DNA of 10,175 nt from Deltaproteobacteria bacterium TL4 (GTDB taxonomy: Bacteria > SAR324 > NAC60-12), in contig JBBCAX010000353.1 of assembly GCA_051382335.1 (NCBI GenBank), positions 1 through 10,175 on the forward strand. The letters are read 5' to 3'. This document shows, piece by piece, positions 26 to 10,175 of this stretch (position 1 is the first letter of the stretch; every line of letters starts with the position of its first letter). Below the pieces are notes generated by a model, which saw only the letters and a program-made list of their open reading frames with translations, made no database searches and was not told the origin of the DNA. The translations under genes were made by a program, and so were the position numbers.

Positions 26-53
26 CGATCCCCCCCCGCGGGGGGGGGCCGCC
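26..53 (-). repeat. Degraded CRISPR repeat copy (degenerate terminal repeat or low-quality sequence)
   Basis: CGATCCCCCCCCGCGGGGGGGGGCCGCC starts exactly one 61-bp period before the repeat at 87 and aligns to the consensus with one deletion. The mismatches mostly convert interrupting bases into C or G runs. Confidence 0.75.
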
Positions 54-86
54 TGTTTTTTTTTGAAGGCTTGTAACCGCCAATAG

Positions 87-786
87 CGATTCATCCCCGC
101 AGGTGCGGGGCAGCCGCTTCCCCGACGCTTAGGCCGGGGAACAGTTTAGATTCATCCCCGCAGGTGCGGGGCAGCCGGACGCGCATTTTCCATGAGGCAG
201 GCTCTAAGCGATTCATCCCCGCAGGTGCGGGGCAGCCTTTTTTGCCGGTTAAGGTACCGGCAAACCTTGCGATTCATCCCCGCAGGTGCGGGGCAGCCGC
301 TGGGATAGCTCCCATCTCCTCTAGGAGAGTCGATTCATCCCCGCAGGTGCGGGGCAGCCGTGTAAAATGTAAAATAATTCATCAATAAAATCGATTCATC
401 CCCGCAGGTGCGGGGCAGCCTTCCTGTGAAAGAGGAGGTACATAAACCTCCTCGATTCATCCCCGCAGGTGCGGGGCAGCCTGGGCTAATTAAAGGACCG
501 TACAGGCAAGTCGCGATTCATCCCCGCAGGTGCGGGGCAGCCTGACAGTGAATGGCCTTACGGTTTGCCGGTACCGATTCATCCCCGCAGGTGCGGGGCA
601 GCCATGGGTTAATCAAAGCTCTTACAGGCAAGTCGCGATTCATCCCCGCAGGTGCGGGGCAGCCTAACCCATGTTATCTAACACGGTTACTGAGGTCGAT
701 TCATCCCCGCAGGTGCGGGGCAGCCTTTCACAGAAAGAAGAGGAACATACACCTCCTCGATTCATCCCCGCAGGTGCGGGGCAGCC
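87..786 (-). CRISPR. Type I-E CRISPR array, 12 repeats of 29 bp and 11 spacers of 32 bp
   Basis: Plus-strand repeat CGATTCATCCCCGCAGGTGCGGGGCAGCC starts at 87, 148 (first base A), 209, 270, 331, 392, 453, 514, 575, 636, 697 and 758, a strict 61-bp period. The minus-strand reading GGCTGCCCCGCACCTGCGGGGATGAATCG has the I-E architecture: CCCCGC/GCGGGG stem, 4-nt loop, and an 8-nt handle ATGAATCG (E. coli ATAAACCG). This fixes the orientation, in agreement with the leader and cas genes. Confidence 0.99.
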
Positions 787-806
787 CCTTCCAAAAATTA
801 CTGAAA

Positions 807-819
807 AATCAGCAGCTTG
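807..819 (+). promoter_or_regulatory. Putative IHF-binding site for leader-side spacer integration
   Basis: AATCAG-CAGC-TTG matches WATCAR-N4-TTR and lies 20 bp from the leader-repeat junction. IHF is known to direct leader-proximal integration in type I-E systems. Confidence 0.65.
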
Positions 820-833
820 AAAGAAGTCAAAAA

Positions 834-862
834 ATCATAACGCCGAATCGAGTTCATGGCTA
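834..862 (-). promoter_or_regulatory. Putative sigma70-type promoter for the array
   Basis: Minus strand TAGCCA (862-857, 4/6 to TTGACA), 17-nt spacer, TATGAT (839-834, 5/6 to TATAAT), pointing into the array. Motif match only. Confidence 0.45.
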
Positions 863-884
863 TACGTTTTAAGGTGGGAAATTG

Positions 885-938
885 GGAGGAAACATCATGT
901 TTTATCCTCCTGAAACAGCAGCAGGAAGAAACATGATG
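885..938. repeat. Palindrome with an alternative pairing arm, downstream of cas2
   Basis: GGAGGAAACAT-C-ATGTTTTATCCTCC (885-910) is an imperfect palindrome. CATCATGTTT (893-902) is the exact reverse complement of AAACATGATG (929-938). 885-899 and 924-938 are 13/15 direct repeats. Confidence 0.6.
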
Positions 939-968
939 AAAGGTTTAAACCATAGATTGAAGCACTTT

Positions 969-1289
969 TCAAGTTGAATTTTGAGATTCCTGTTCCTCTG
1001 CTTTTTCAAAATGGGGCATGTACTCAATCAGTTCCAAACCTTCCATCAGGACGACCGTTCTGCGATTTTTCCCAAAGGTTCTCATGGAAAATCCCTGTTC
1101 ATTATGAGCGTCAAAGACCATCACCGCAGAAAATTCCGCATTACGGACTCCGGTAATCATAGCCCAAATCTCATCACGTAAACGTGCTGACATTTTACCT
1201 ACATACATTCCAGCCCGTACCTGCAAACACCAGGCGGTAAGGGTTCCTCTCAATTTGTCAGGAGCGTTTTCCACATGAATCACAACCAT
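969..1289 (-). CDS. cas2: Type I-E CRISPR-associated endoribonuclease Cas2
   Basis: 106 aa. MVVIHVENAPDKLRGTLTAWCLQVRAGMYVG and NEQGF match the I-E Cas2 pattern. GGAG lies 6 nt upstream of the ATG, and the gene follows cas1. Confidence 0.96.
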   Translation of the reverse strand: MVVIHVENAPDKLRGTLTAWCLQVRAGMYVGKMSARLRDEIWAMITGVRNAEFSAVMVFDAHNEQGFSMRTFGKNRRTVVLMEGLELIEYMPHFEKAEEQESQNST

Positions 1290-1392: not shown

Positions 1393-2349
1393 TTAATCAA
1401 AATCCAGAAGAGGTGGAGACGGTTTATCAGAGGTTGATGCTGTGATGGAGGGAGAACTGGATTCAGAAAGAGTGCTGCCAGAAATGTCCGTATGCTGTTC
1501 TTGCGAAACTTCAGGAGCCAAAATCGCTTCAATATCCGGAATGATGGTTGCCAAAAAATGATTGACCCGAAATCGGTTACGTAACTCATGCCGGATCAGG
1601 GTTTCAGCTTGGGCTGCATGCGCTTTCACGAGTTCAAAAGCCAGAAGTAACACCTGTGAATCTTTATACAGATCTCCGATGTCATACACAAAGGACAAGG
1701 GGCTTCCTGAATGCAGAAACCCCACAGCCGGACTGTATCCTGCTGTTAAAATGGCAGCTTCCACAATTCCATACATGCAGGAGGTTCCCACCGAAATGGT
1801 TTTATTGATAGGATTCGCCTTATCCCAGTTGTCAGGATCATAAAAACGTCCATTCCAGGGAACATCGTACTTTTCTGCCAATTCCTGATAGCGTTTTTTA
1901 ACTCTCTGTCCTTCCATTCCCCTCAATTGGTCAATGCTCTTGTTGACAGGGCAAGGCGCCTGAAAGCGTTGTTCAAACATACGACGAACTACAATCAGGC
2001 GTTGCTTGGGATCATGATACATCCAGGTTTGATGCAGGATTTTTTCACTGTTGGAAAAATCCGTATAGCCTGCGGAATAGGTTCGGACACCTCCTTCGCC
2101 CACCCAAATAAGCAGACATTTATGCTGGGAACACAGTTTCACCGCTTCATGAGTAATCACCGAACCGGGTTCGAGCAAGATCAGGCTGAGGGAAGCAACA
2201 GGAATTTGCCGAAAAGGACTTCCATCTGTCTGAGTCATCACCAGCCCGGAGTCATCCACATCCAGCCTTGCATGACCCACATGCAGATAGGATAAACGGT
2301 CTTTCAGGGGATTGGCGCGTACTTCCGCTTTCAAATCCTGGTAGTCCAT
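1393..2349 (-). CDS. cas1: Type I-E CRISPR-associated integrase Cas1
   Basis: 318 aa. Motifs LKDRLSYL, IPVASL..LLEPGS.ITHEAV, WVGEGGVR.Y. Catalytic-type residues are present in LRGMEG, GFLHSG and FVYDIGD. Confidence 0.98.
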   Translation of the reverse strand: MDYQDLKAEVRANPLKDRLSYLHVGHARLDVDDSGLVMTQTDGSPFRQIPVASLSLILLEPGSVITHEAVKLCSQHKCLLIWVGEGGVRTYSAGYTDFSNSEKILHQTWMYHDPKQRLIVVRRMFEQRFQAPCPVNKSIDQLRGMEGQRVKKRYQELAEKYDVPWNGRFYDPDNWDKANPINKTISVGTSCMYGIVEAAILTAGYSPAVGFLHSGSPLSFVYDIGDLYKDSQVLLLAFELVKAHAAQAETLIRHELRNRFRVNHFLATIIPDIEAILAPEVSQEQHTDISGSTLSESSSPSITASTSDKPSPPLLDFD

Positions 2350-2350
2350 T

Positions 2351-2977
2351 TTAACTCCGGATCAGGCTGAACATTCCAAACCCAAAGGCTTTGCCACGTC
2401 CCAAGCCATTGACATAAGCCGAAAGGAAGGCTGTAGCATCTGTAATTTCCAGGTGTCCTCGCAGGTTTTGCCCTGTCAGACGAATCAGGGATTCTCCGTG
2501 TTTTTTTCCAAAAGCACGGTGTTCTCCCATTCGGGAGGCAGCCAGCAGTTTAAAGCCTTTTTCAGAAGCCTGCTTTGCCAGCCAACCGGAGTAAAGGAGA
2601 TTGCCAGACTCATCCTGACTGGTTTGGATATACTCTTTGGGACGAATGGGAATTTTGACAGAGCGTTTTGCTCCTTCCCGTTTTTCAGCAACCACCGCAT
2701 TAGCCCGTAAATAAAAGAAAAACTGCTGTCCTTCCCTAAAACAGGGATCGTAGGCTTTGACGGCATATTCGGAGGGAGCCAGCCACGGTTCCCAGTGGGG
2801 TTCCTGACAGGAGTGTACCAACAGAATTTGCTGACGGGGAGCTTGTTCTTCAATGCGGAACAGGAACTCCCGTTGAGCCGAGTCGGTCTGATTTTCAAAG
2901 GCTTTCCATAACTGTTGATGCAACTGGTAAGCGTCCAGAATAGGTGAAGCCAGGGTCAGTTTACTCAGATACAGCAT
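2351..2977 (-). CDS. cas6e: Cas6e (Cse3/CasE) crRNA-processing endoribonuclease
   Basis: 208 aa. YLSKL, Y.LHQ.LW, FLFRIE, F.LRAN and the C-terminal glycine-rich loop GLGRGKAFGFGMFSL. Strong AAGGAGG RBS within the end of cas5. Confidence 0.96.
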   Translation of the reverse strand: MLYLSKLTLASPILDAYQLHQQLWKAFENQTDSAQREFLFRIEEQAPRQQILLVHSCQEPHWEPWLAPSEYAVKAYDPCFREGQQFFFYLRANAVVAEKREGAKRSVKIPIRPKEYIQTSQDESGNLLYSGWLAKQASEKGFKLLAASRMGEHRAFGKKHGESLIRLTGQNLRGHLEITDATAFLSAYVNGLGRGKAFGFGMFSLIRS

Positions 2978-3785
2978 GAACTACCTCCTTCAGTGCAAGG
3001 GGATACACGAGTCTTTCAGCAAACTGTCGAGCGTCCAGCGGACCCGGTAGATAACGGTCCCGGATGCGATAAGGGATGCCTTGTTTCAAGGTTGCCTCGG
3101 TGATGGCGGAATCCCCTTGGAGAATGGTTGCATCACAATAGAAGCGAGTGTCCTCCTCTTTGGAAAAAGGAGGCAGTTTTTGATTCTTGAAGAGTGCTTC
3201 CTGACATTGAAAGTCGGTTTCCAACTGATTTTGAAACGTCTGCTCCAGGTTTCTGAACGTTGCCATTTCTGCCAGGGGATGTTCCCAGGAAAACACAGGG
3301 ACTTGCCCTTGTTGATGATAAACCGGAGGCAACGACCACGGATGTCCACGACGTCCAGCATACAGGGCATATTGCGGATTCAGTAACGCCTTGCCGATTT
3401 CAGGCAGGGAAGGAGCCTTTTGAGAAGGGGTTTCCTGAAAAACGGACACTAAAAAAGCGGTGTCCGCCAGATAGGTTTTACGTCCAATGAGAGTGCGTTC
3501 CGAATCAACCTTGAGTTTATCAGCTACCACGACCCCCTTGACGGAAAAGAAATCTGTCTGCAAAGCCCCTTTGCAGATTTCCAGGACAATGAAGTTGAGG
3601 GACTGATGGAGCGCTTGCAATCGTTCCGCTTCAGAACGCTCCAGTCCCAGCGCCGCCGCAATGAGTCCACATAATCCGGAGTGAGTGGGAAACGAAAGCG
3701 AAGGGCGATCATCCCCTGTCAAAACCATGTCTCCCCAGGATTGCATCGGTGCCCACAAGGGCATCAGGAGATATTCACGGTTCAT
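2961..3785 (-). CDS. cas5: Cas5 (CasD) Cascade subunit
   Basis: 274 aa. L.APMQSWG...RPS..FPT.SGL.GLIAAALG, YLAD..F and L.NP.Y.LYAGRR are Cas5e motifs. ATGA overlap with cas7. Confidence 0.96.
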   Translation of the reverse strand: MNREYLLMPLWAPMQSWGDMVLTGDDRPSLSFPTHSGLCGLIAAALGLERSEAERLQALHQSLNFIVLEICKGALQTDFFSVKGVVVADKLKVDSERTLIGRKTYLADTAFLVSVFQETPSQKAPSLPEIGKALLNPQYALYAGRRGHPWSLPPVYHQQGQVPVFSWEHPLAEMATFRNLEQTFQNQLETDFQCQEALFKNQKLPPFSKEEDTRFYCDATILQGDSAITEATLKQGIPYRIRDRYLPGPLDARQFAERLVYPLALKEVVHAVSE

Positions 3786-4915
3786 GACTGCACTCCTTGC
3801 AGAGCCTGGTTCACTTTGTTCCAGAGTTCGGTCAGATTGGGACAGGTCGTCATGTTGTCCAGGGGGGTATCCTTCAGAAAATCCGCATTTTGACAGGCGA
3901 GAAAAGCCTGAGCGACTTTTTTGAGATCTCCAAAAAACCTCTGTTCATTGATAAATTCAGAAAGCAGCGACTTAGTCGTGATTTTCAGGAGGTTGCCTTT
4001 GGAAGGAATATCCGCAAACGCATTGCTGAGATTGCTGTTGGCACCATTGCCCAGGGTGATCAGGATGCTAAACGGATGCTGATGGGCAGCCATCGAGTTT
4101 TGGCTGCCGGTGGGTAATGCCATCACAAACGATTTCAAAAAGGCGGAAGTCGCCTGTTGAGCCAGCAGGTTGTCCTTGCCTAGATTGTGTGCCAGTAAAT
4201 CAAAATTGACCGTGGCATATTGATAAAAGATGCCGGTGTTGAACTGCTTTTCATCCATGTGTCCGGCTCCCATTTCTTCCTCTCTCAGATCATCCACGGC
4301 TGTAAAAAAGTCATCCTGATTTTTGACAGGATGGGTGGTGATGGCATGAGCCACCTGCACCGCAGCATCACAATCCTCAAAGACTTCGCTGGTGGTCAAC
4401 CGACCAAACATGGCAATGTCCACTCCATCACGGAATTTGCGTTGCTTCTGAAGTTCGTTGATAGCAGAGGCAAAGACTTTTTTAACATCCGCCAGTTTTT
4501 TATCATCGTTTTCCTGACATAGTGTCAATGCCAATTTTTTGATTTCTTCCAGTTCCTGTTGTGTCACAAAAATCAGTTGGGTGAGTTCTTCACCGTCTTT
4601 GGCTTTGTTTTTTTGTCCAAGAGAAGCGACTTCGGTGGTCATCAGTTTGACAAGTTTTTCGGATACCCCATTTTTTTGCAAATGCTCTTTCACCAGAATC
4701 GGCAGTTTGCGGGTGCGGATTCCAAAAGCTCCTTGCATTTCATTATTGGGCAATTCCTTCATGAAACTACGAATAGAACGTTTGAGGCATTGACTGGAAA
4801 TGCGCCCATGCTGCTGTCCGAGGAAGTTCACTGACTTGGGGGAACCCAGGTCATCACGGTTGAGATTATGGGTGGAATGAGACGTCAGGGTGTGGATTTG
4901 AATAAAAGTGGTCAT
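3782..4915 (-). CDS. cas7: Cas7 (Cse4/CasC) Cascade backbone subunit
   Basis: 377 aa. FIQIH.L..NLNRDDLGSPK, RISSQCLKR, DIAMFGR, AAVQVAHAITTH, DFFTAVDD, GAGHM and PTGSQNS.A. Confidence 0.98.
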   Translation of the reverse strand: MTTFIQIHTLTSHSTHNLNRDDLGSPKSVNFLGQQHGRISSQCLKRSIRSFMKELPNNEMQGAFGIRTRKLPILVKEHLQKNGVSEKLVKLMTTEVASLGQKNKAKDGEELTQLIFVTQQELEEIKKLALTLCQENDDKKLADVKKVFASAINELQKQRKFRDGVDIAMFGRLTTSEVFEDCDAAVQVAHAITTHPVKNQDDFFTAVDDLREEEMGAGHMDEKQFNTGIFYQYATVNFDLLAHNLGKDNLLAQQATSAFLKSFVMALPTGSQNSMAAHQHPFSILITLGNGANSNLSNAFADIPSKGNLLKITTKSLLSEFINEQRFFGDLKKVAQAFLACQNADFLKDTPLDNMTTCPNLTELWNKVNQALQGVQS

Positions 4916-4956
4916 GGCATCCTTTGGGTTCAGGGTTAGCAGAAAGAGTTAAAGAT

Positions 4957-5481
4957 TCAGTCTTTAAGGGGATATTTTTCAAAATAGGCTTTTGCCAGTT
5001 TTTGTTTACAACGATTGATCCAGTCCTGTTTTTGGCTATTCAACGCGGAGAGAAATTGGGCGAGTTCCTCCCAGTTCAAATCCTCATGACGCAACATTTT
5101 CAGGGGGGAACGCAGTGCCTCAAACCCTTCCTCCAGCGTTTCAGCCTTCATGATGTGTTTGAAACGGGAGAGTTTGATTTTGGGAGCCTTGGGATCGCCC
5201 ACCAAAGATTCGCCCAAGGCTTTGGGAATGAAACGCAAACTTTCCTCGTTGGCTTTACGATCTCGCCAGAAGAGCAGGAGCGCTGAAAGAACGGGTTCAC
5301 TGAGGTTCCACTGTTCTTGCGAGTTCGTATAATAGAGGCGGGATACTTTGTAAAACACGGGAAGTAACGGAACCTCCCGGTAGTCTTCCAGGCGTCTCAA
5401 TTCGGAGCGGTCACCATTGCTGAGAGACTGATAGGCTTTGATGAGCGAGTTGATGCCTGAGGATGGTTCCTGATGGGTCAT
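4957..5481 (-). CDS. cse2: Cas11 (Cse2/CasB) small subunit
   Basis: 174 aa, helical-looking, with N-terminal LSNGDRSELRR typical of Cse2. Lies between cas8e and cas7 with an ATGA overlap to cas8e. Confidence 0.88.
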   Translation of the reverse strand: MTHQEPSSGINSLIKAYQSLSNGDRSELRRLEDYREVPLLPVFYKVSRLYYTNSQEQWNLSEPVLSALLLFWRDRKANEESLRFIPKALGESLVGDPKAPKIKLSRFKHIMKAETLEEGFEALRSPLKMLRHEDLNWEELAQFLSALNSQKQDWINRCKQKLAKAYFEKYPLKD

Positions 5482-7115
5482 GGGGTTTCTCCTTCAGAGG
5501 GGTGATTATCCAAAAAATTACGATAAATTTTGTTCAACATTTTTTCCAAACCTTGTTTTTGCAGATGAAGTTTTCTTTGGGCTGAAACATCCTCCCAGCC
5601 AAAGCTTTCACACAATTCATGAAATGCTTGAACCAGGCGGGTTTGGCAGGTTTTCAGATAGTCCCGCAAAAGGGTGAAGAGGTGACCTTGCTGTTGTGCC
5701 TGACGAAAGAGGGACACACGGTTCAGGATTTCTTCACCCCAGTGCTGGACTAACTCATCCTGAGTGTCCTGAAGATGAGGGAGTTGTTCCTGACTGCGTT
5801 TTTTATCAGCGCTTCCCATTTTTCGGAAGACGCCAGTCATCTCTGTCATGGCGGAGGTGAGGTCTTCCAACGCCTGATAAAAAGACTGTTGATCCTCCTT
5901 TTGATCTTGGGTGAAAAAGGGGAGTTGAATGACCTGATGATGAAAGCCCAGGAGTTTGGCTTGATCGGCTTCATAAGCCTGGAGTTCCAGTTGATAAAAA
6001 AAATTAGGAGAATCAGCTCGCAGTTCCTCAAACTGCTGAACCAGGGGCGCCATCTGAAAGTGATTTTTATCTCGTTCCAGATCCTTCAGACTCAAACATG
6101 CCAAATTGCGCCAGATATCCGGTTTATAGTTTTGGGGAAGTCTCTGGGCTTTCTCATCCACATACGTTGCCAGAGTTGGATGACCCACAAAACCATCCTT
6201 CACTTTATCCAGACGGTTTCCAAAGCCTCGCCAATAATAGCGTTCAACGAGTTTTTCTGTGGTCATACCACACAAATCACATATTCCCTTTTGGGGCTGT
6301 ATTTCAAAGAACACATGACGGGGCGTGTAAAGCATCGCTCTGAGGAGACCAACATCCTGGGCTAAATCCTGGAATCCCTTGTCCTTAGGCTGTCCTGGAC
6401 GAAGCCACGAAGGCTGATCAATGGCTGATGGTTTAAGCCAGCCCTGGTTTTCGGTGAGGTCAGGATTCAGGCAACCGGAGAGATAAGTATTGAGAATCAT
6501 CCGTTGAAAAGAATCCGGGGCGTGAATCATACACAACCACGCCTGCGGTCCTCGAAAATTGGCGTGTCCTGCCAATCCTGCCGTACAAAAATTATTATGA
6601 TGAAGCAATCCAGTCAGGGCACAGCCAACGCAAATTTTTCTCAGAGTTGCAGGTCGTTTATGATGGCAGGTATTGTTTCCGGAAACCGAGTGCAGGAGCA
6701 ATCCATCCAGTCCTTCTTCCTGTCCTGACACAACTTTACAACCAGAACCTGTCTCGCCTTGGAGAGCCACAGTCTTCACGTCATAATGTTGATAGAATCC
6801 ATTTTTATCCGGGTAGAGGTTAAAGAAATCTTTCTTTTCCTCAAGACGTTGGGAGAGGCGTTCCTTGAAATCTGGATAGTATTTGGAGGCAACTCCCCGT
6901 TTAGTGAGGGAGTTCCATTCTTCCTTAGACAGTTCCACTTGCAGGACTTGCAGGAAAAGGCTGGGAATGTAACGCAGAAACGCTTCCAAAGCCGGGTCAG
7001 GATGCACTGGATCAGCAACTATCTCCCCTAGCAGAATGGAACGGAGGGGGACTTGTCTCAAACGTCCGTCTTTGTCTTTGCAAGGATAAAACGGGTCATG
7101 GAGTGGGTTGTACAT
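5478..7115 (-). CDS. cas8e: Cas8e (Cse1/CasA) large subunit, divergent
   Basis: 545 aa. N-terminal YNPLHDPFYP, FNL..FYQ, two CxxC pairs (CVGCA, CDLCG), FRGP and HP motifs. First gene of the Cascade block. Confidence 0.9.
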   Translation of the reverse strand: MYNPLHDPFYPCKDKDGRLRQVPLRSILLGEIVADPVHPDPALEAFLRYIPSLFLQVLQVELSKEEWNSLTKRGVASKYYPDFKERLSQRLEEKKDFFNLYPDKNGFYQHYDVKTVALQGETGSGCKVVSGQEEGLDGLLLHSVSGNNTCHHKRPATLRKICVGCALTGLLHHNNFCTAGLAGHANFRGPQAWLCMIHAPDSFQRMILNTYLSGCLNPDLTENQGWLKPSAIDQPSWLRPGQPKDKGFQDLAQDVGLLRAMLYTPRHVFFEIQPQKGICDLCGMTTEKLVERYYWRGFGNRLDKVKDGFVGHPTLATYVDEKAQRLPQNYKPDIWRNLACLSLKDLERDKNHFQMAPLVQQFEELRADSPNFFYQLELQAYEADQAKLLGFHHQVIQLPFFTQDQKEDQQSFYQALEDLTSAMTEMTGVFRKMGSADKKRSQEQLPHLQDTQDELVQHWGEEILNRVSLFRQAQQQGHLFTLLRDYLKTCQTRLVQAFHELCESFGWEDVSAQRKLHLQKQGLEKMLNKIYRNFLDNHPSEGETP

Positions 7116-7118
7116 ACT

Positions 7119-7508
7119 TCACTCGATCAAAGATTCTTTTTTAAGATAGGAAGTCAGGGTTTCCACATAGAGAACGGCTCTTTCCAGAAGAAGGTCTGCT
7201 TCCTGTTTAGAAATAATAAAAGTGTATTCATAATCGCCAAGCTGTCTTTTTTCAAAGGCTCGGTTGAGTTCTCTCCCCAGTTCTCTTGGGAAAATATTGG
7301 TGAGAATAAAATGTTCTCCAAATGCCGCAATGACACTTTTATGAGAAGAAAATGTTAAATTTTTACTGAGCAATACCGCTTCAGCCGCATAGAACATGGA
7401 ATAGTAAGCACGAGAAACACAAGATTCGTAATCTTCTTCATCAAGCAAAAGCTGGGCGCTATGGAGGTATTTTTCAGATCGAGCGATCAGGGAGGCGATT
7501 TCATTCAT
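7119..7508 (-). CDS. HEPN domain protein (UPF0332/COG1895-like), putative toxin partner of the MNT
   Basis: 129 aa. A..YL.SA..LL....Y...VSRAYYSMFYAA.A.L, SHKSVI..FG..F and R...DY form the recognisable pattern of this small HEPN family. ATGA overlap with the MNT gene. Confidence 0.88.
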   Translation of the reverse strand: MNEIASLIARSEKYLHSAQLLLDEEDYESCVSRAYYSMFYAAEAVLLSKNLTFSSHKSVIAAFGEHFILTNIFPRELGRELNRAFEKRQLGDYEYTFIISKQEADLLLERAVLYVETLTSYLKKESLIE

Positions 7509-7861
7509 GCAGGAATCCCCTCTTTACGAATATTAAGGAGGAGGGGACTATTGATGGTAAGATAACTGTGTGCAGACACAGGGTAGATGGAAATGAGGGT
7601 ATTGTACTTCAAGTTGAAGTCAGTAATTAAATCAATCATACGATCAATTTCCAAGCCTGCCTGTATTTCATATTTTAAGACAACGGCCAGATCAATATCA
7701 GAAGAATCCGAAGCCTGATGACGCGCCCAAGAGCCATAAAGCACTACCTGTTGCAATTGATCACCATATAGTTGTTGTAATGCCTGTTTTAATTCTTGCA
7801 TCAGAACAGGCAACCACTCTTTAGCATTTGCGACTTTCATTAGTTTAGGAATTAGGGTCAT
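7505..7861 (-). CDS. Minimal nucleotidyltransferase (MNT), putative antitoxin
   Basis: 118 aa. LYGSWARHQASDSSDIDLAVV is an exact GS-X10-DXD motif, and the C-terminus reads NI.KEG. The true start may be a downstream Met (MKVAN... or MQELK...). Confidence 0.92.
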   Translation of the reverse strand: MTLIPKLMKVANAKEWLPVLMQELKQALQQLYGDQLQQVVLYGSWARHQASDSSDIDLAVVLKYEIQAGLEIDRMIDLITDFNLKYNTLISIYPVSAHSYLTINSPLLLNIRKEGIPA

Positions 7862-7923
7862 CTTTCTACTCTCTCAAGAAGGTGTAACAAAAGGGGTTTC
7901 ATGGGCATATTCGCCATTTAAGT

Positions 7924-10175
7924 TCATCTTTTATCAATCTTCAGTCCTTGGGTTTTGGAATAGATTAAAACAAGGTTGTTGCCTTTGAAAGTGTAATCTA
8001 AGTCTTTCCTAACATCTTCAGAAAAAGGAAGCAAGAGCGGTTTTGGTTCATAAGGAAATTCCTGGTCCATTCTCTTGCGGGTAGTGCTCCAGTGCTGACC
8101 TTCCGGGTATTTTAAAAAATCAAAATCATTGGAAGATACCCCTCTGAGCATGGTTTTCAGAACGGTGATGGAATGTTCCTGCAACCGCAGTTTGAATTCC
8201 TGATACCGCTGGTTGTTCTCTTCCCGACCATCCAGCTCATTCAGCCAGCGATAATCCACAAAAATGATTTGACGGGAAGGTGGAGCCAACCGGGTTCCAC
8301 CTTCTTCCAGTTCTTCCCTTTCAGGGGCGTCCCGTTCTTCTTGGGAGAGTCCCTGCTGCCCTAATCGGTGAGAGGGTTCTTCGGGAGAGGGTTGGAGATA
8401 ACCAGCGGCTGTAAGGCTTTGGACATATTCTTCATTGTTCCATTGTTGCCTCGCTTCCAGATAGGCGGGTTGATCCGTTTCAGGAATCGTTAATTTTTCA
8501 TCCCCATAGACTTCCTCAACCAGTCCCCGAATGTCTTGAGGCAATTGGACAGGAAATTTCTGGTTAGATCCCCGTTGTTCAAACAATAAAGCGGTGCGGT
8601 AAAGGATGGAAGCGTCATAGACGGAGCGGGCTTCAGGAGTGTTTTTTCGGTTTTGCAACCATCCTGAAACCGTCGAACAGGGGCTATAGACAAACAGGCA
8701 GGGCTTTTTCCAGGGATGAGCCTGACGAAGAGCGTCATTTTCCTGATGGCGGTGCAGTCGCCCGGCTCGTTGCAGGAGTAAATCAATGGGAGCCAGCTCT
8801 GAAATCATCACATCAAAATCTACATCCAGACTTTGCTCCACGACCTGGGTGGCAATCAGGATGCGTCCTTTCGTTCGTTCGGACTGGCCTGCTTTGCCAA
8901 ACTTCTGGAGAACCTTTTCTTCGAGGTCATTGCGGTCATTCAGGAGAAAACGGCTGTGAAACAACAACAGTTCAATTTGACTGGCTTGAGCAGAGGCTTC
9001 CAATTCCTCAAACCATTCCTGAGCTTTTTTGACAGTATTGAGAATCAGACAGCACTGCGCTCCTTTTTGGGCAAATTCAAGCAGACTCTTTTTGATTTTA
9101 TCAGCATCAGACTCCTCTTTGAAGGTGATTGTTTTTTTCTGAAGTGGATTATGAGCGCAGGGAATAAAGCGAGGTTCTGCTTGTGGCACAATATGGGTGA
9201 TGAGAGGATAGGCAACTGCCTCAGCAGGAGAGGGCTGTGCCAGAGCTTTTGCGCCAAAAGCCTCTGCCAGTTTTTGTTTGGTTTCAGAATGCAGCGTCGC
9301 CGAAAGCAAAATGACATGACTGCCTAACGCTCGGAGCCACTCCAGCAGACGCTTTAAAATCCGTTGCATATAGGCATCATAAGCATGGACTTCATCCACA
9401 ATCACGACCGCATGGGTTAATCCCAGCAATTTGACCCAATGATGACGTCCGCCCAAAACCGCGGATAAGGCTTGGTCAATGGTTCCGACTCCCGCTGTTG
9501 CCAGCAGGCTGCGTTTATGGCTTTGGGCAAAAAAAGCGTTGCAGGTTTTGAGGGCGCTCAGGTTTTCCGCATCGGGCTGAGAGGCTTCATAGCGCTCAGA
9601 GGTATCCGACTGAATACTGTTCAAAAAGGATTTTTGGAATTGGCGTTTCCCATGTGCCAGAACCAGAGACGATTCCTGATCAAAAAAGGGCGTTGCTCCT
9701 TGTAGGATCGTTTGCAGACGCTGGAACATGGCATTGGAGGTAGCCATTGTGGGCAACGCGAAATAGAGTTTATCCACAGCCCCACTTGCCAGAAGGCGGT
9801 CTGCCAGCAGCAAAGCAGCTTCCGTTTTGCCTTCTCCCATCGGCGCTTCCAGAATCAACAATTGGGGTTCCTGAGTCAAAGGAATTTCCAGCACCCGTTC
9901 CTGCAAAGGACGCAGCGTATGGGTTTGCAAAACTCGTTGAATCCGGGTTGATTCCTTTCCACAGTAACGTCCCAACAATCCTCTGGAGTTCAAAACCTCG
10001 TAAGCTTTTTGCTCCAGTTCAGATGTAATGGATGCCGGCTCTGAAACATCGTGAATGGACTTGAGCGCAAAAACACGAGTATCAGAACCCAGCCAGTCCG
10101 CCAGCGTACAGACTCCTGTCAAAAAAGCGACCGGAGCCGCTGTTACTTCAGAAAACAGTTGAGGGTGGGTGGGTA
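7924..10175 (-). CDS. cas3: Cas3 HD nuclease-SF2 helicase, 5'-partial
   Basis: Walker A APMGEGKT, LPTMATSNAM, DEVHAYD, LSAT, HSRF, ATQVVEQSLDVDFD and QRAGRLHRH. LADWLGS is the tail of the HD domain. The frame stays open from 10122 to the window edge (PTHPQLFSEVTAAPVAF), so the real start lies outside the window. Confidence 0.97.
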   Translation of the reverse strand, partial: PTHPQLFSEVTAAPVAFLTGVCTLADWLGSDTRVFALKSIHDVSEPASITSELEQKAYEVLNSRGLLGRYCGKESTRIQRVLQTHTLRPLQERVLEIPLTQEPQLLILEAPMGEGKTEAALLLADRLLASGAVDKLYFALPTMATSNAMFQRLQTILQGATPFFDQESSLVLAHGKRQFQKSFLNSIQSDTSERYEASQPDAENLSALKTCNAFFAQSHKRSLLATAGVGTIDQALSAVLGGRHHWVKLLGLTHAVVIVDEVHAYDAYMQRILKRLLEWLRALGSHVILLSATLHSETKQKLAEAFGAKALAQPSPAEAVAYPLITHIVPQAEPRFIPCAHNPLQKKTITFKEESDADKIKKSLLEFAQKGAQCCLILNTVKKAQEWFEELEASAQASQIELLLFHSRFLLNDRNDLEEKVLQKFGKAGQSERTKGRILIATQVVEQSLDVDFDVMISELAPIDLLLQRAGRLHRHQENDALRQAHPWKKPCLFVYSPCSTVSGWLQNRKNTPEARSVYDASILYRTALLFEQRGSNQKFPVQLPQDIRGLVEEVYGDEKLTIPETDQPAYLEARQQWNNEEYVQSLTAAGYLQPSPEEPSHRLGQQGLSQEERDAPEREELEEGGTRLAPPSRQIIFVDYRWLNELDGREENNQRYQEFKLRLQEHSITVLKTMLRGVSSNDFDFLKYPEGQHWSTTRKRMDQEFPYEPKPLLLPFSEDVRKDLDYTFKGNNLVLIYSKTQGLKIDKR

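Follow-up and report, generated by a model that had tools for sequence, protein, structure and literature searches.

Shared spacers of the type I-E and type III-A CRISPR arrays of Deltaproteobacteria bacterium TL4 point to a family of probably small, hairpin-packed DNA invaders

The type I-E and type III-A CRISPR arrays of Deltaproteobacteria bacterium TL4 (GTDB lineage Bacteria; SAR324; NAC60-12) likely drew spacers from a single family of DNA invaders that are small, vary fast, and carry short hairpins densely packed through their genes. The CRISPR systems themselves are ordinary, and the I-E array is an ordinary immune record; the target is real and unusual, and with the I-E array it can be tested. 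Our best reading, to which we give roughly an even chance, is that the target is a small virus or satellite with a single-stranded-DNA stage.

The DNA studied, referred to as the window, is one whole contig of 10,175 nt (C353; JBBCAX010000353.1 of assembly GCA_051382335.1) from a genome of 6.59 Mb in 445 contigs. A profile search showed that the minus strand carries a complete type I-E cas operon in the order cas3-cse1-cse2-cas7-cas5-cas6-cas1-cas2. All the type I-E signature genes (cse1, cse2, cas7, cas5e, cas6e, cas3, cas1e, and cas2e) were found, cse1 scoring below its cut-off.

787..968, minus strand: putative leader, A+T-rich, between the last repeat and cas2
969..1289, minus strand: cas2 (I-E), TIGR01873 above cut-off
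1393..2349, minus strand: cas1 (I-E), TIGR03638 above cut-off
2351..2977, minus strand: cas6e, TIGR01907 above cut-off
2961..3785, minus strand: cas5e, TIGR01868 above cut-off
3782..4915, minus strand: cas7 (cse4), TIGR01869 above cut-off
4957..5481, minus strand: cse2 (cas11), TIGR02548 above cut-off
5478..7115, minus strand: cse1 (cas8e), divergent; NF007247 at E 4.6e-14, far under cut-off, named also from its operon position
7924..10122, minus strand: helicase part of cas3, TIGR01587 above cut-off; the PRK09694 match begins at model position 220

The N-terminus of Cas3 probably lies off the contig end. The system shares with the Cse-type I-E system of E. coli the full cas order, the 61-nt period, the first-base G, and an AAG-type PAM. 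It differs from that system in two respects: a HEPN/nucleotidyltransferase pair sits between cas3 and cse1, and the spacers, which overlap those of a III-A array, crowd on ~500 nt of a single target family. The inserted pair (7119-7861, minus strand) encodes a HEPN protein and a minimal nucleotidyltransferase, resembling an MNT-HEPN toxin-antitoxin pair.

The host's III-A array has 186 repeats on contig C90, continuing from C45, and 186 spacers (185 on C90 and one on C45). Its locus carries Csm genes, a Cas1 without reverse transcriptase (RT), an AddAB-like pair, and Cas2. Twenty RT matches were found in the host genome, none of them on C45, the III-A cas contig. Overlaps among spacers place 117 of the 185 on C90 in 20 hand-curated tiles, and the other 68 are singletons; these tiles are chimeras of variants, joined in places by overlaps of 9–13 nt. 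In most of them the sense orientation contains an open frame, and to such frames the III-A spacers are antisense. The III-A spacers are co-oriented: their overlaps comprised 93 on the same strand and seven on opposite strands, three of the seven being between two III-A spacers and all three across palindromes. The I-E array and its spacers are laid out as follows, with links to these tiles.

27..54, minus strand: degenerate trailer repeat, strongly palindromic, in register 61 nt before the first repeat
55..87, minus strand: S0, the probable oldest spacer; starts with G; best overlap score 10, within the null range; unlinked
88..786, minus strand: type I-E CRISPR array, 12 identical 28-nt repeats and 11 spacers of 33 nt, period 61 nt
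116..148, minus strand: S1; hairpin; without the first G; borderline link to III-A spacers 7 and 175
177..209, minus strand: S2; in the predicted 61-codon ORF of the main tile; crRNA antisense to the mRNA; AGG upstream in three variants
238..270, minus strand: S3; 9-bp hairpin; tile B (probably non-coding); 28-nt exact match to III-A spacer 19
299..331, minus strand: S4; two 5-bp hairpins; no significant spacer link
360..392, minus strand: S5; A+T-rich, without structure, unlinked
421..453, minus strand: S6; tile C (open frame); AAG upstream; same start site as S11
482..514, minus strand: S7; tile D; same start site as S9
543..575, minus strand: S8; tile B, on the strand opposite to S3; AAG upstream
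604..636, minus strand: S9; variant of the S7 site with a 14-nt exact match and a one-base indel; not significant against III-A directly
665..697, minus strand: S10; tile D, on the strand opposite to S7 and S9
726..758, minus strand: S11, the newest; variant of the S6 site; AAG upstream

Because the leader lies between the array and cas2, crRNAs are predicted to be read from the minus strand. The initial annotation, which counted 11 spacers, missed the probable twelfth at 55-87. The palindrome at 27..54 is followed by a T run on the plus strand and is possibly also a terminator. The first G of I-E spacers derives from the PAM, and in crRNA orientation G is the first base of 10/11 spacers here. 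S1 has no first G and carries a G at its other end, which may reflect a reversed insertion of the kind described in PMC4027179.

The link between the two arrays rests on spacer overlap. Seven of the 11 I-E spacers (S2, S3, S6, S7, S8, S10, and S11) matched III-A spacers with scores of 15–28, where the threshold was at least 15 and the best score of 150 random genome 33-mers against the III-A spacers was 13. S9 joins the III-A set through S7, bringing the linked spacers to 8/11. S1 is borderline (20/28 identical to III-A spacer 175; score 11, null P 0.053), and S4, S5, and S0 were unplaced. Overlap is also seen within the I-E array. The initial annotation had linked seven spacers by homology or overlap, and these links hold: S3/S8, S6/S11, and S7/S9 overlap directly, and S7/S10 are joined via III-A spacer 40. 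Overlapping pairs made up 3/55 here versus 0/2166 in control I-E arrays, and spacer-spacer overlap is a stronger signal than the hairpin count.

The hairpins had led the initial annotation to propose a structured target, and all the inverted repeats it gave are present where it placed them. Its claim of clear inverted repeats in six of 11 spacers stood for half of them against dinucleotide shuffles: S1, S3, and S6 reached p <= 0.05 each, whereas S4, S10, and S11 gave p 0.06–0.44. Perfect stems of at least 5 bp occurred in 5/11 spacers compared with 2.09 expected from shuffles (P = 0.030), and the stem length summed over the array gave P = 0.0007. By itself, the hairpin excess of the I-E array is modest. 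For comparison with other I-E arrays we used a control set of four arrays (118 spacers) from genomes of the same class, three of the four being richer in G+C. Stems of at least 5 bp were found in 5/11 spacers here versus 17/118 in the controls (Fisher p = 0.021), and stems of at least 7 bp in 3/11 versus 2/118 (Fisher p = 0.004). Raw folding energy, part of the comparison suggested at the outset, did not differ from that of the four control arrays (p = 0.21).

It had further been noted that imperfect positions in S1, S6, S10, and S11 become G-U pairs on the minus strand. This was seen for S1, S10, and S11 (1.8–3.3 kcal/mol more stable) and not for S6 (0.1), and it fails as a marker of the target strand, S10 lying on the target strand opposite to S1, S6, and S11. 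Folding showed no strand asymmetry in the 115 newest III-A spacers (52 vs. 59) or in the RNA phage MS2 (43 vs. 49). Since MS2 is equally without asymmetry, the G-U argument has no weight, and strand asymmetry was dropped as a test of RNA versus DNA.

Hairpins are more prominent in the III-A array, where stems of at least 6 bp occur in 0.31 of the 185 spacers (38-mers of MS2, 0.10; phiX174, 0.03; M13, 0.06) and stems of at least 9 bp in 0.08 (0.00, 0.00, and 0.01, respectively). An array of a relative with a similar repeat had hairpins in 3/35 spacers, with no enrichment. The third array of the host, of type III-B on contig C237, is hairpin-enriched (20/45) and has one link to the III-A array (its spacer 22 with C90 spacer 166). 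Because C237 is enriched yet shares almost nothing with the target, part of the III-A hairpin signal may be acquisition bias.

Several further features of these loci were observed. In the C237 array (11600-15230), several purine-rich, low-complexity spacers lie at one end, a group II intron-like RT fragment adjoins the array, and spacer 43 (14880-14915) equals positions 38819-38852 of host contig C77 at 33/34 bases, either a self-target or a resident mobile element. In the III-A locus, cas1 and cas2 are separated by genes for a 921-aa protein with no family matched and a 1054-aa AddA/RecB-like helicase-nuclease (C45, 12780-18723, plus strand); these could be an insertion or could aid in prespacer making. 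Two further proteins encoded in the same locus (4672-10130, plus strand) are a Card1-like CARF nuclease and a fusion of a CARF-like protein with an adenosine deaminase. Three main versions of the III-A repeat (array 1-13700) account for 71, 67, and 44 of the 186 copies, and one leader-near spacer is duplicated five units on. Two other genomes, G069 (in many contigs) and G015, hold dozens of dispersed palindromes like the I-E repeat core, some at 61-nt spacing, which are probably REP-like repeats.

The largest tile comprises a leader, a ribosome-binding site and start codon inside a hairpin, and then a 61-codon ORF. Mismatches among variants at the three codon positions numbered 172/797, 124/801, and 251/783 (0.22, 0.16, and 0.32; the pairs are not independent). 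Because of this ORF and the codon-position pattern, the target is read from its sequence as protein-coding rather than non-coding. The contiguous 261-nt main tile contains ten local hairpins and has a local-fold z of -9.8; 270-nt control windows gave mean z values of -3.6 for MS2 (lowest -7.0), -1.0 for phiX174, and -0.8 for M13. Because this contiguous tile itself folds at such a z, the hairpin packing is a property of the target and not just of the choice of pieces. Among the other tiles, B, C, and F have z values of -4 to -5 and G and H of -2 to -3, and D, E, and J fold no better than shuffles (+1.6, -0.7, and -0.6); D holds three I-E spacers.

Exact reverse-complement loops were present in 3/20 stem contexts with variable loops. 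One of these is in S11, whose 3-nt hairpin loop is exactly inverted relative to III-A spacer 103; the orientation of S11 was set by its 5' half, and its best raw match runs the opposite way. Compensatory pair changes were found in two small alignments, and the S3 hairpin has one such change in III-A spacer 90. In PMC8794818, loop inversion is a footprint ascribed to template switching in DNA replication. The helix mismatch spectrum is the same as that of MS2 (G-T 8 and A-C 6 in both), and because of this equality folding alone leaves RNA possible.

Tile B, which holds S3 and S8, and the leader are strings of hairpins with indels between variants and no long frame, and both are probably non-coding. 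The same leader motif is found ahead of different ORF starts. Around a variable hairpin, the end of tile B mirrors the start of the leader as an inverted copy, and the long hairpin that ends tile B is flanked by A and T runs. This long stem may be a replication origin, and a bidirectional terminator reads equally well; likewise, the shared leader and inverted copies could indicate a common origin of segments or just a bidirectional terminator. For the shared leader, attC sites and sigma-70 or sigma-54 promoters gave no fit when compared by eye with consensus sequences. S1 with III-A spacer 7 was considered as a physical end of the target and dropped, since III-A spacer 175 appears to continue past that point. 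By eye, 15 nt of the main ORF recur in some variants of the variable hairpin at the tile B end (III-A spacers 33, 37, 56, 77, and 88), which suggests a templated insertion. Tile G (III-A spacers 76, 82, 100, and 130) shows a ribosome-binding site and a 13-codon basic ORF, both ends of which are overlapped by neighbouring stop and start codons.

The I-E spacers point to properties of the target on which the III-A record alone is silent: a double-stranded stage, a PAM, and a hint of size. Five of the placed spacers are sense (S3, S6, S7, S9, and S11) and three antisense (S2, S8, and S10). Among placed spacers with a reliably readable PAM, AAG precedes S6, S8, and S11 and AGG precedes S2, in line with the AAG PAMs anticipated for the target. 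I-E spacer uptake next to PAMs requires double-stranded DNA. Because I-E spacers come from both strands beside AAG or AGG PAMs, and because three loop inversions are exact, a double-stranded DNA stage of the target is likely. The AAG motif and the orientation rule for I-E spacers follow PMC4027179.

The eight placed I-E spacers all map to four tiles that add up to ~500 nt and contain 53/185 III-A spacers. S6/S11 and S7/S9 each start at one site in different variants. Under a size model that assumes even use of AAG sites, the probability of two coincident start pairs in 10 draws drops from 0.28 for a 1.3-kb target to 0.026 at 5 kb and 0.0007 at 40 kb, and that of 7/11 I-E/III-A overlaps is no more than 0.09 for 20 kb and 0.002 for 40 kb. 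The model favours a few kb and allows 20 kb (P 0.09). Primed I-E adaptation produces hot spacers and falls off with distance, according to PMC6282206; the shared start sites point to a small target or a tight hotspot, either one.

No match identified the target itself. In the host genome, blastn and tblastn gave no protospacer outside the arrays among the matches listed. Motif scans of IMG/VR contigs returned 0, 0, 0, 0, 1, 6, 29, and 16 hits with unrelated flanks, JGI metagenomes eight hits in tRNA spacers and housekeeping-like genes with no second spacer match, and GTDB contigs one hit with unrelated flanks. The target was not found in 88 genomes of the class (one 2-mismatch hit beyond the own genome), matches in 41 relatives were mostly repeats, and phage (blastn) and plasmid collections gave no match to the spacers. 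These were exact or near-exact DNA searches, which miss distant relatives. The Rfam check proposed in the initial annotation gave no match near the gathering score, with low power on 33–40 nt pieces. In the main texts of the largely open-access literature searched, we found no described element of this kind.

These findings only partly agree with the source first proposed for the spacers, a small, diversified element that folds as a single strand, unlike ordinary phage coding DNA. The target is diversified, forms hairpins in a single strand, and is probably small, but it appears to code for protein (the 61-codon ORF). Of the sources listed there, the single-stranded-DNA or rolling-circle replicon or satellite remains the best candidate. 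The target is known here from spacers; from the features above we infer that it passes through a single-stranded stage in which hairpins are selected, that it is small, and that it is a virus or satellite and not a plasmid. Small ssDNA phages such as the Microviridae phiX174 and the Inoviridae M13 have circular genomes of 4–10 kb, replicate through a dsDNA form, transcribe one strand, and carry small ORFs that overlap. A dsDNA form, one-strand mRNA, and small ORFs would fit the target; however, only 3–6% of their 38-mers have stems of at least 6 bp, against 31% for the target. The two ssDNA phages tested are not hairpin-rich, so this reading needs an unusual one.

For a virus or satellite of this kind, a possible course of events is as follows. 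The element would make mRNA from short ORFs, with the ribosome-binding site and start codon in a hairpin; the layout comes from tiling, and the hairpin is presumed to be regulatory. The RT-less III-A system holds spacers antisense to this mRNA, an orientation that may reflect selection for function. The I-E Cas1-Cas2 takes 33-nt spacers from both strands beside AAG-type PAMs, which would need a double-stranded replicative form. Selection on the single-stranded form would keep the hairpins, while template switching in DNA replication, as discussed in PMC8794818, may perfect stems and invert loops. Repeated infection by variants would then lead to re-sampling of the same sites, as seen for S6/S11 and S7/S9. 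More tentatively, the element could represent a class of bacterial ssDNA viruses or satellites, very small and so far undescribed, in which template switching maintains coding DNA with a higher density of hairpins than in an RNA phage; standard dsDNA metagenomics would miss this class, leaving two CRISPR arrays of the host as its only trace to date. Such elements would possibly be multipartite, because one shared leader precedes different ORFs and one stem-loop is shared.

An alternative with a real but lesser chance is that the spacers sample the early, first-entering region of larger dsDNA phages, where III-A would follow transcription and hairpins and I-E would acquire via free ends or priming. 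In the published work on Streptococcus thermophilus, III-A prefers hairpin-forming DNA (PMC8860593) and early phage genes (PMC13575424), and the array studied here is likewise an RT-less III-A array rich in hairpin-forming, transcribed sequence near gene starts. The single leader motif before different ORF starts, the 68/185 singletons, and the hairpin enrichment of C237 are all consistent with an early region, and the tile B end hairpin with its A and T runs would read as an ordinary bidirectional terminator. The coverage is also hotspot-like, I-E lying on four tiles of ~500 nt and III-A covering several times more. Small ORFs of no assigned function are typical of phage early regions, and those of the tiles fit. 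In contrast, the co-resident DNA-targeting system of S. thermophilus, type II-A, did not share the III-A hotspots in either paper (PMC8860593, PMC13575424), whereas here 7/11 I-E spacers lie on them; in addition, the hairpins here run through the whole ORF. Neither a DNA-targeting array on the same tiles nor an ORF that folds better than MS2 would be expected from the III-A hairpin habit, and acquisition bias leaves the contiguous ORF at z -9.8 unexplained. Even sampling of a 40-kb genome would give the 7/11 overlaps at P <= 0.002, the opposite-strand I-E pairs on two separate tiles suggest no single priming pattern, and the eight motif scans of IMG/VR contigs disclosed no relative.

An RNA replicon (levivirus-like, Obelisk-like, or viroid-like) or a reverse-transcribing element is an improbable target; in that case a host or element RT would supply DNA to both Cas1-Cas2 complexes. 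Hairpins through the coding sequence and start codons hidden in hairpins are traits of RNA phage, as the MS2 control illustrates for the former, and the shared mismatch spectrum and the 20 host RT matches would suit such an element. MS2 nevertheless has fewer and shorter perfect stems than the target: stems of at least 9 bp occur in 8% of the spacers and not in MS2, and the loop inversions fit DNA replication. Leviviricetes have an RNA genome and are not known to have a DNA stage. Because I-E spacers come from both strands with AAG-type PAMs, the target indirectly appears to depart from this trait, and the same observation speaks against an RNA replicon generally, as does, by eye, the absence of a run of GNRA or UNCG tetraloops in the loop list. 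Viroid-like circular RNAs (10.1101/2022.07.19.500677) resemble the target as small structured replicons known partly via spacers; according to that source they bear ribozymes, and the clearest and best-supported cases are at RT-bearing type III loci. The present locus has no RT on the III-A cas contig, no ribozyme match (Rfam, low power), and a PAM-bearing I-E record. The spacers fold on themselves as local hairpins, which a rod-like fold would not be expected to give.

A non-coding structured element (IS200/IS605 ends, omega-RNA, a large ncRNA, REP-like repeats, attC sites, or retron msDNA) is a very unlikely source, although tile B and the leader, probably non-coding hairpin strings, would suit it and S3 and S8 lie in tile B. 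Most tiles are open-framed in the sense direction, and the main tile has codon periodicity. The initial annotation had listed a structured ncRNA locus, IS200/IS605 ends, omega-RNA, and retron msDNA among its candidates, and none of these gained, among the matches listed, a host copy outside the arrays or an Rfam match near the gathering score (low power on 33–40 nt pieces). A non-coding source, which it named as the supporting outcome, is not supported either, the largest tile carrying a ribosome-binding site, the putative 61-codon ORF, and codon-position mismatches.

Chance hairpins in unrelated spacers, or copying of I-E spacers from the host's III-A array, is scarcely credible: only three of 11 spacers are individually significant and folding energy is not below that of control arrays, but the overlaps lie far beyond the null, the I-E spacers bridge different III-A spacers, and they were not copied from the array because they hold no III-A repeat sequence (best match to the III-A repeat 4–6), so that this origin is ruled out for 8/11 I-E spacers and may still hold for S4, S5, and S0.

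Taken together, the DNA-targeting and the RNA-targeting CRISPR systems of one cell recorded the same invader over a long history (117/185 III-A and 8/11 I-E spacers). If the early phage region is the true source, I-E and III-A acquisition converge on one hotspot, unlike in the published comparison of types II and III. If the small hairpin-packed ssDNA replicon is the true one, it represents a kind of bacterial parasite absent from current virus catalogues. The spacers of both arrays are ready probes for pulling the element from its source sample.
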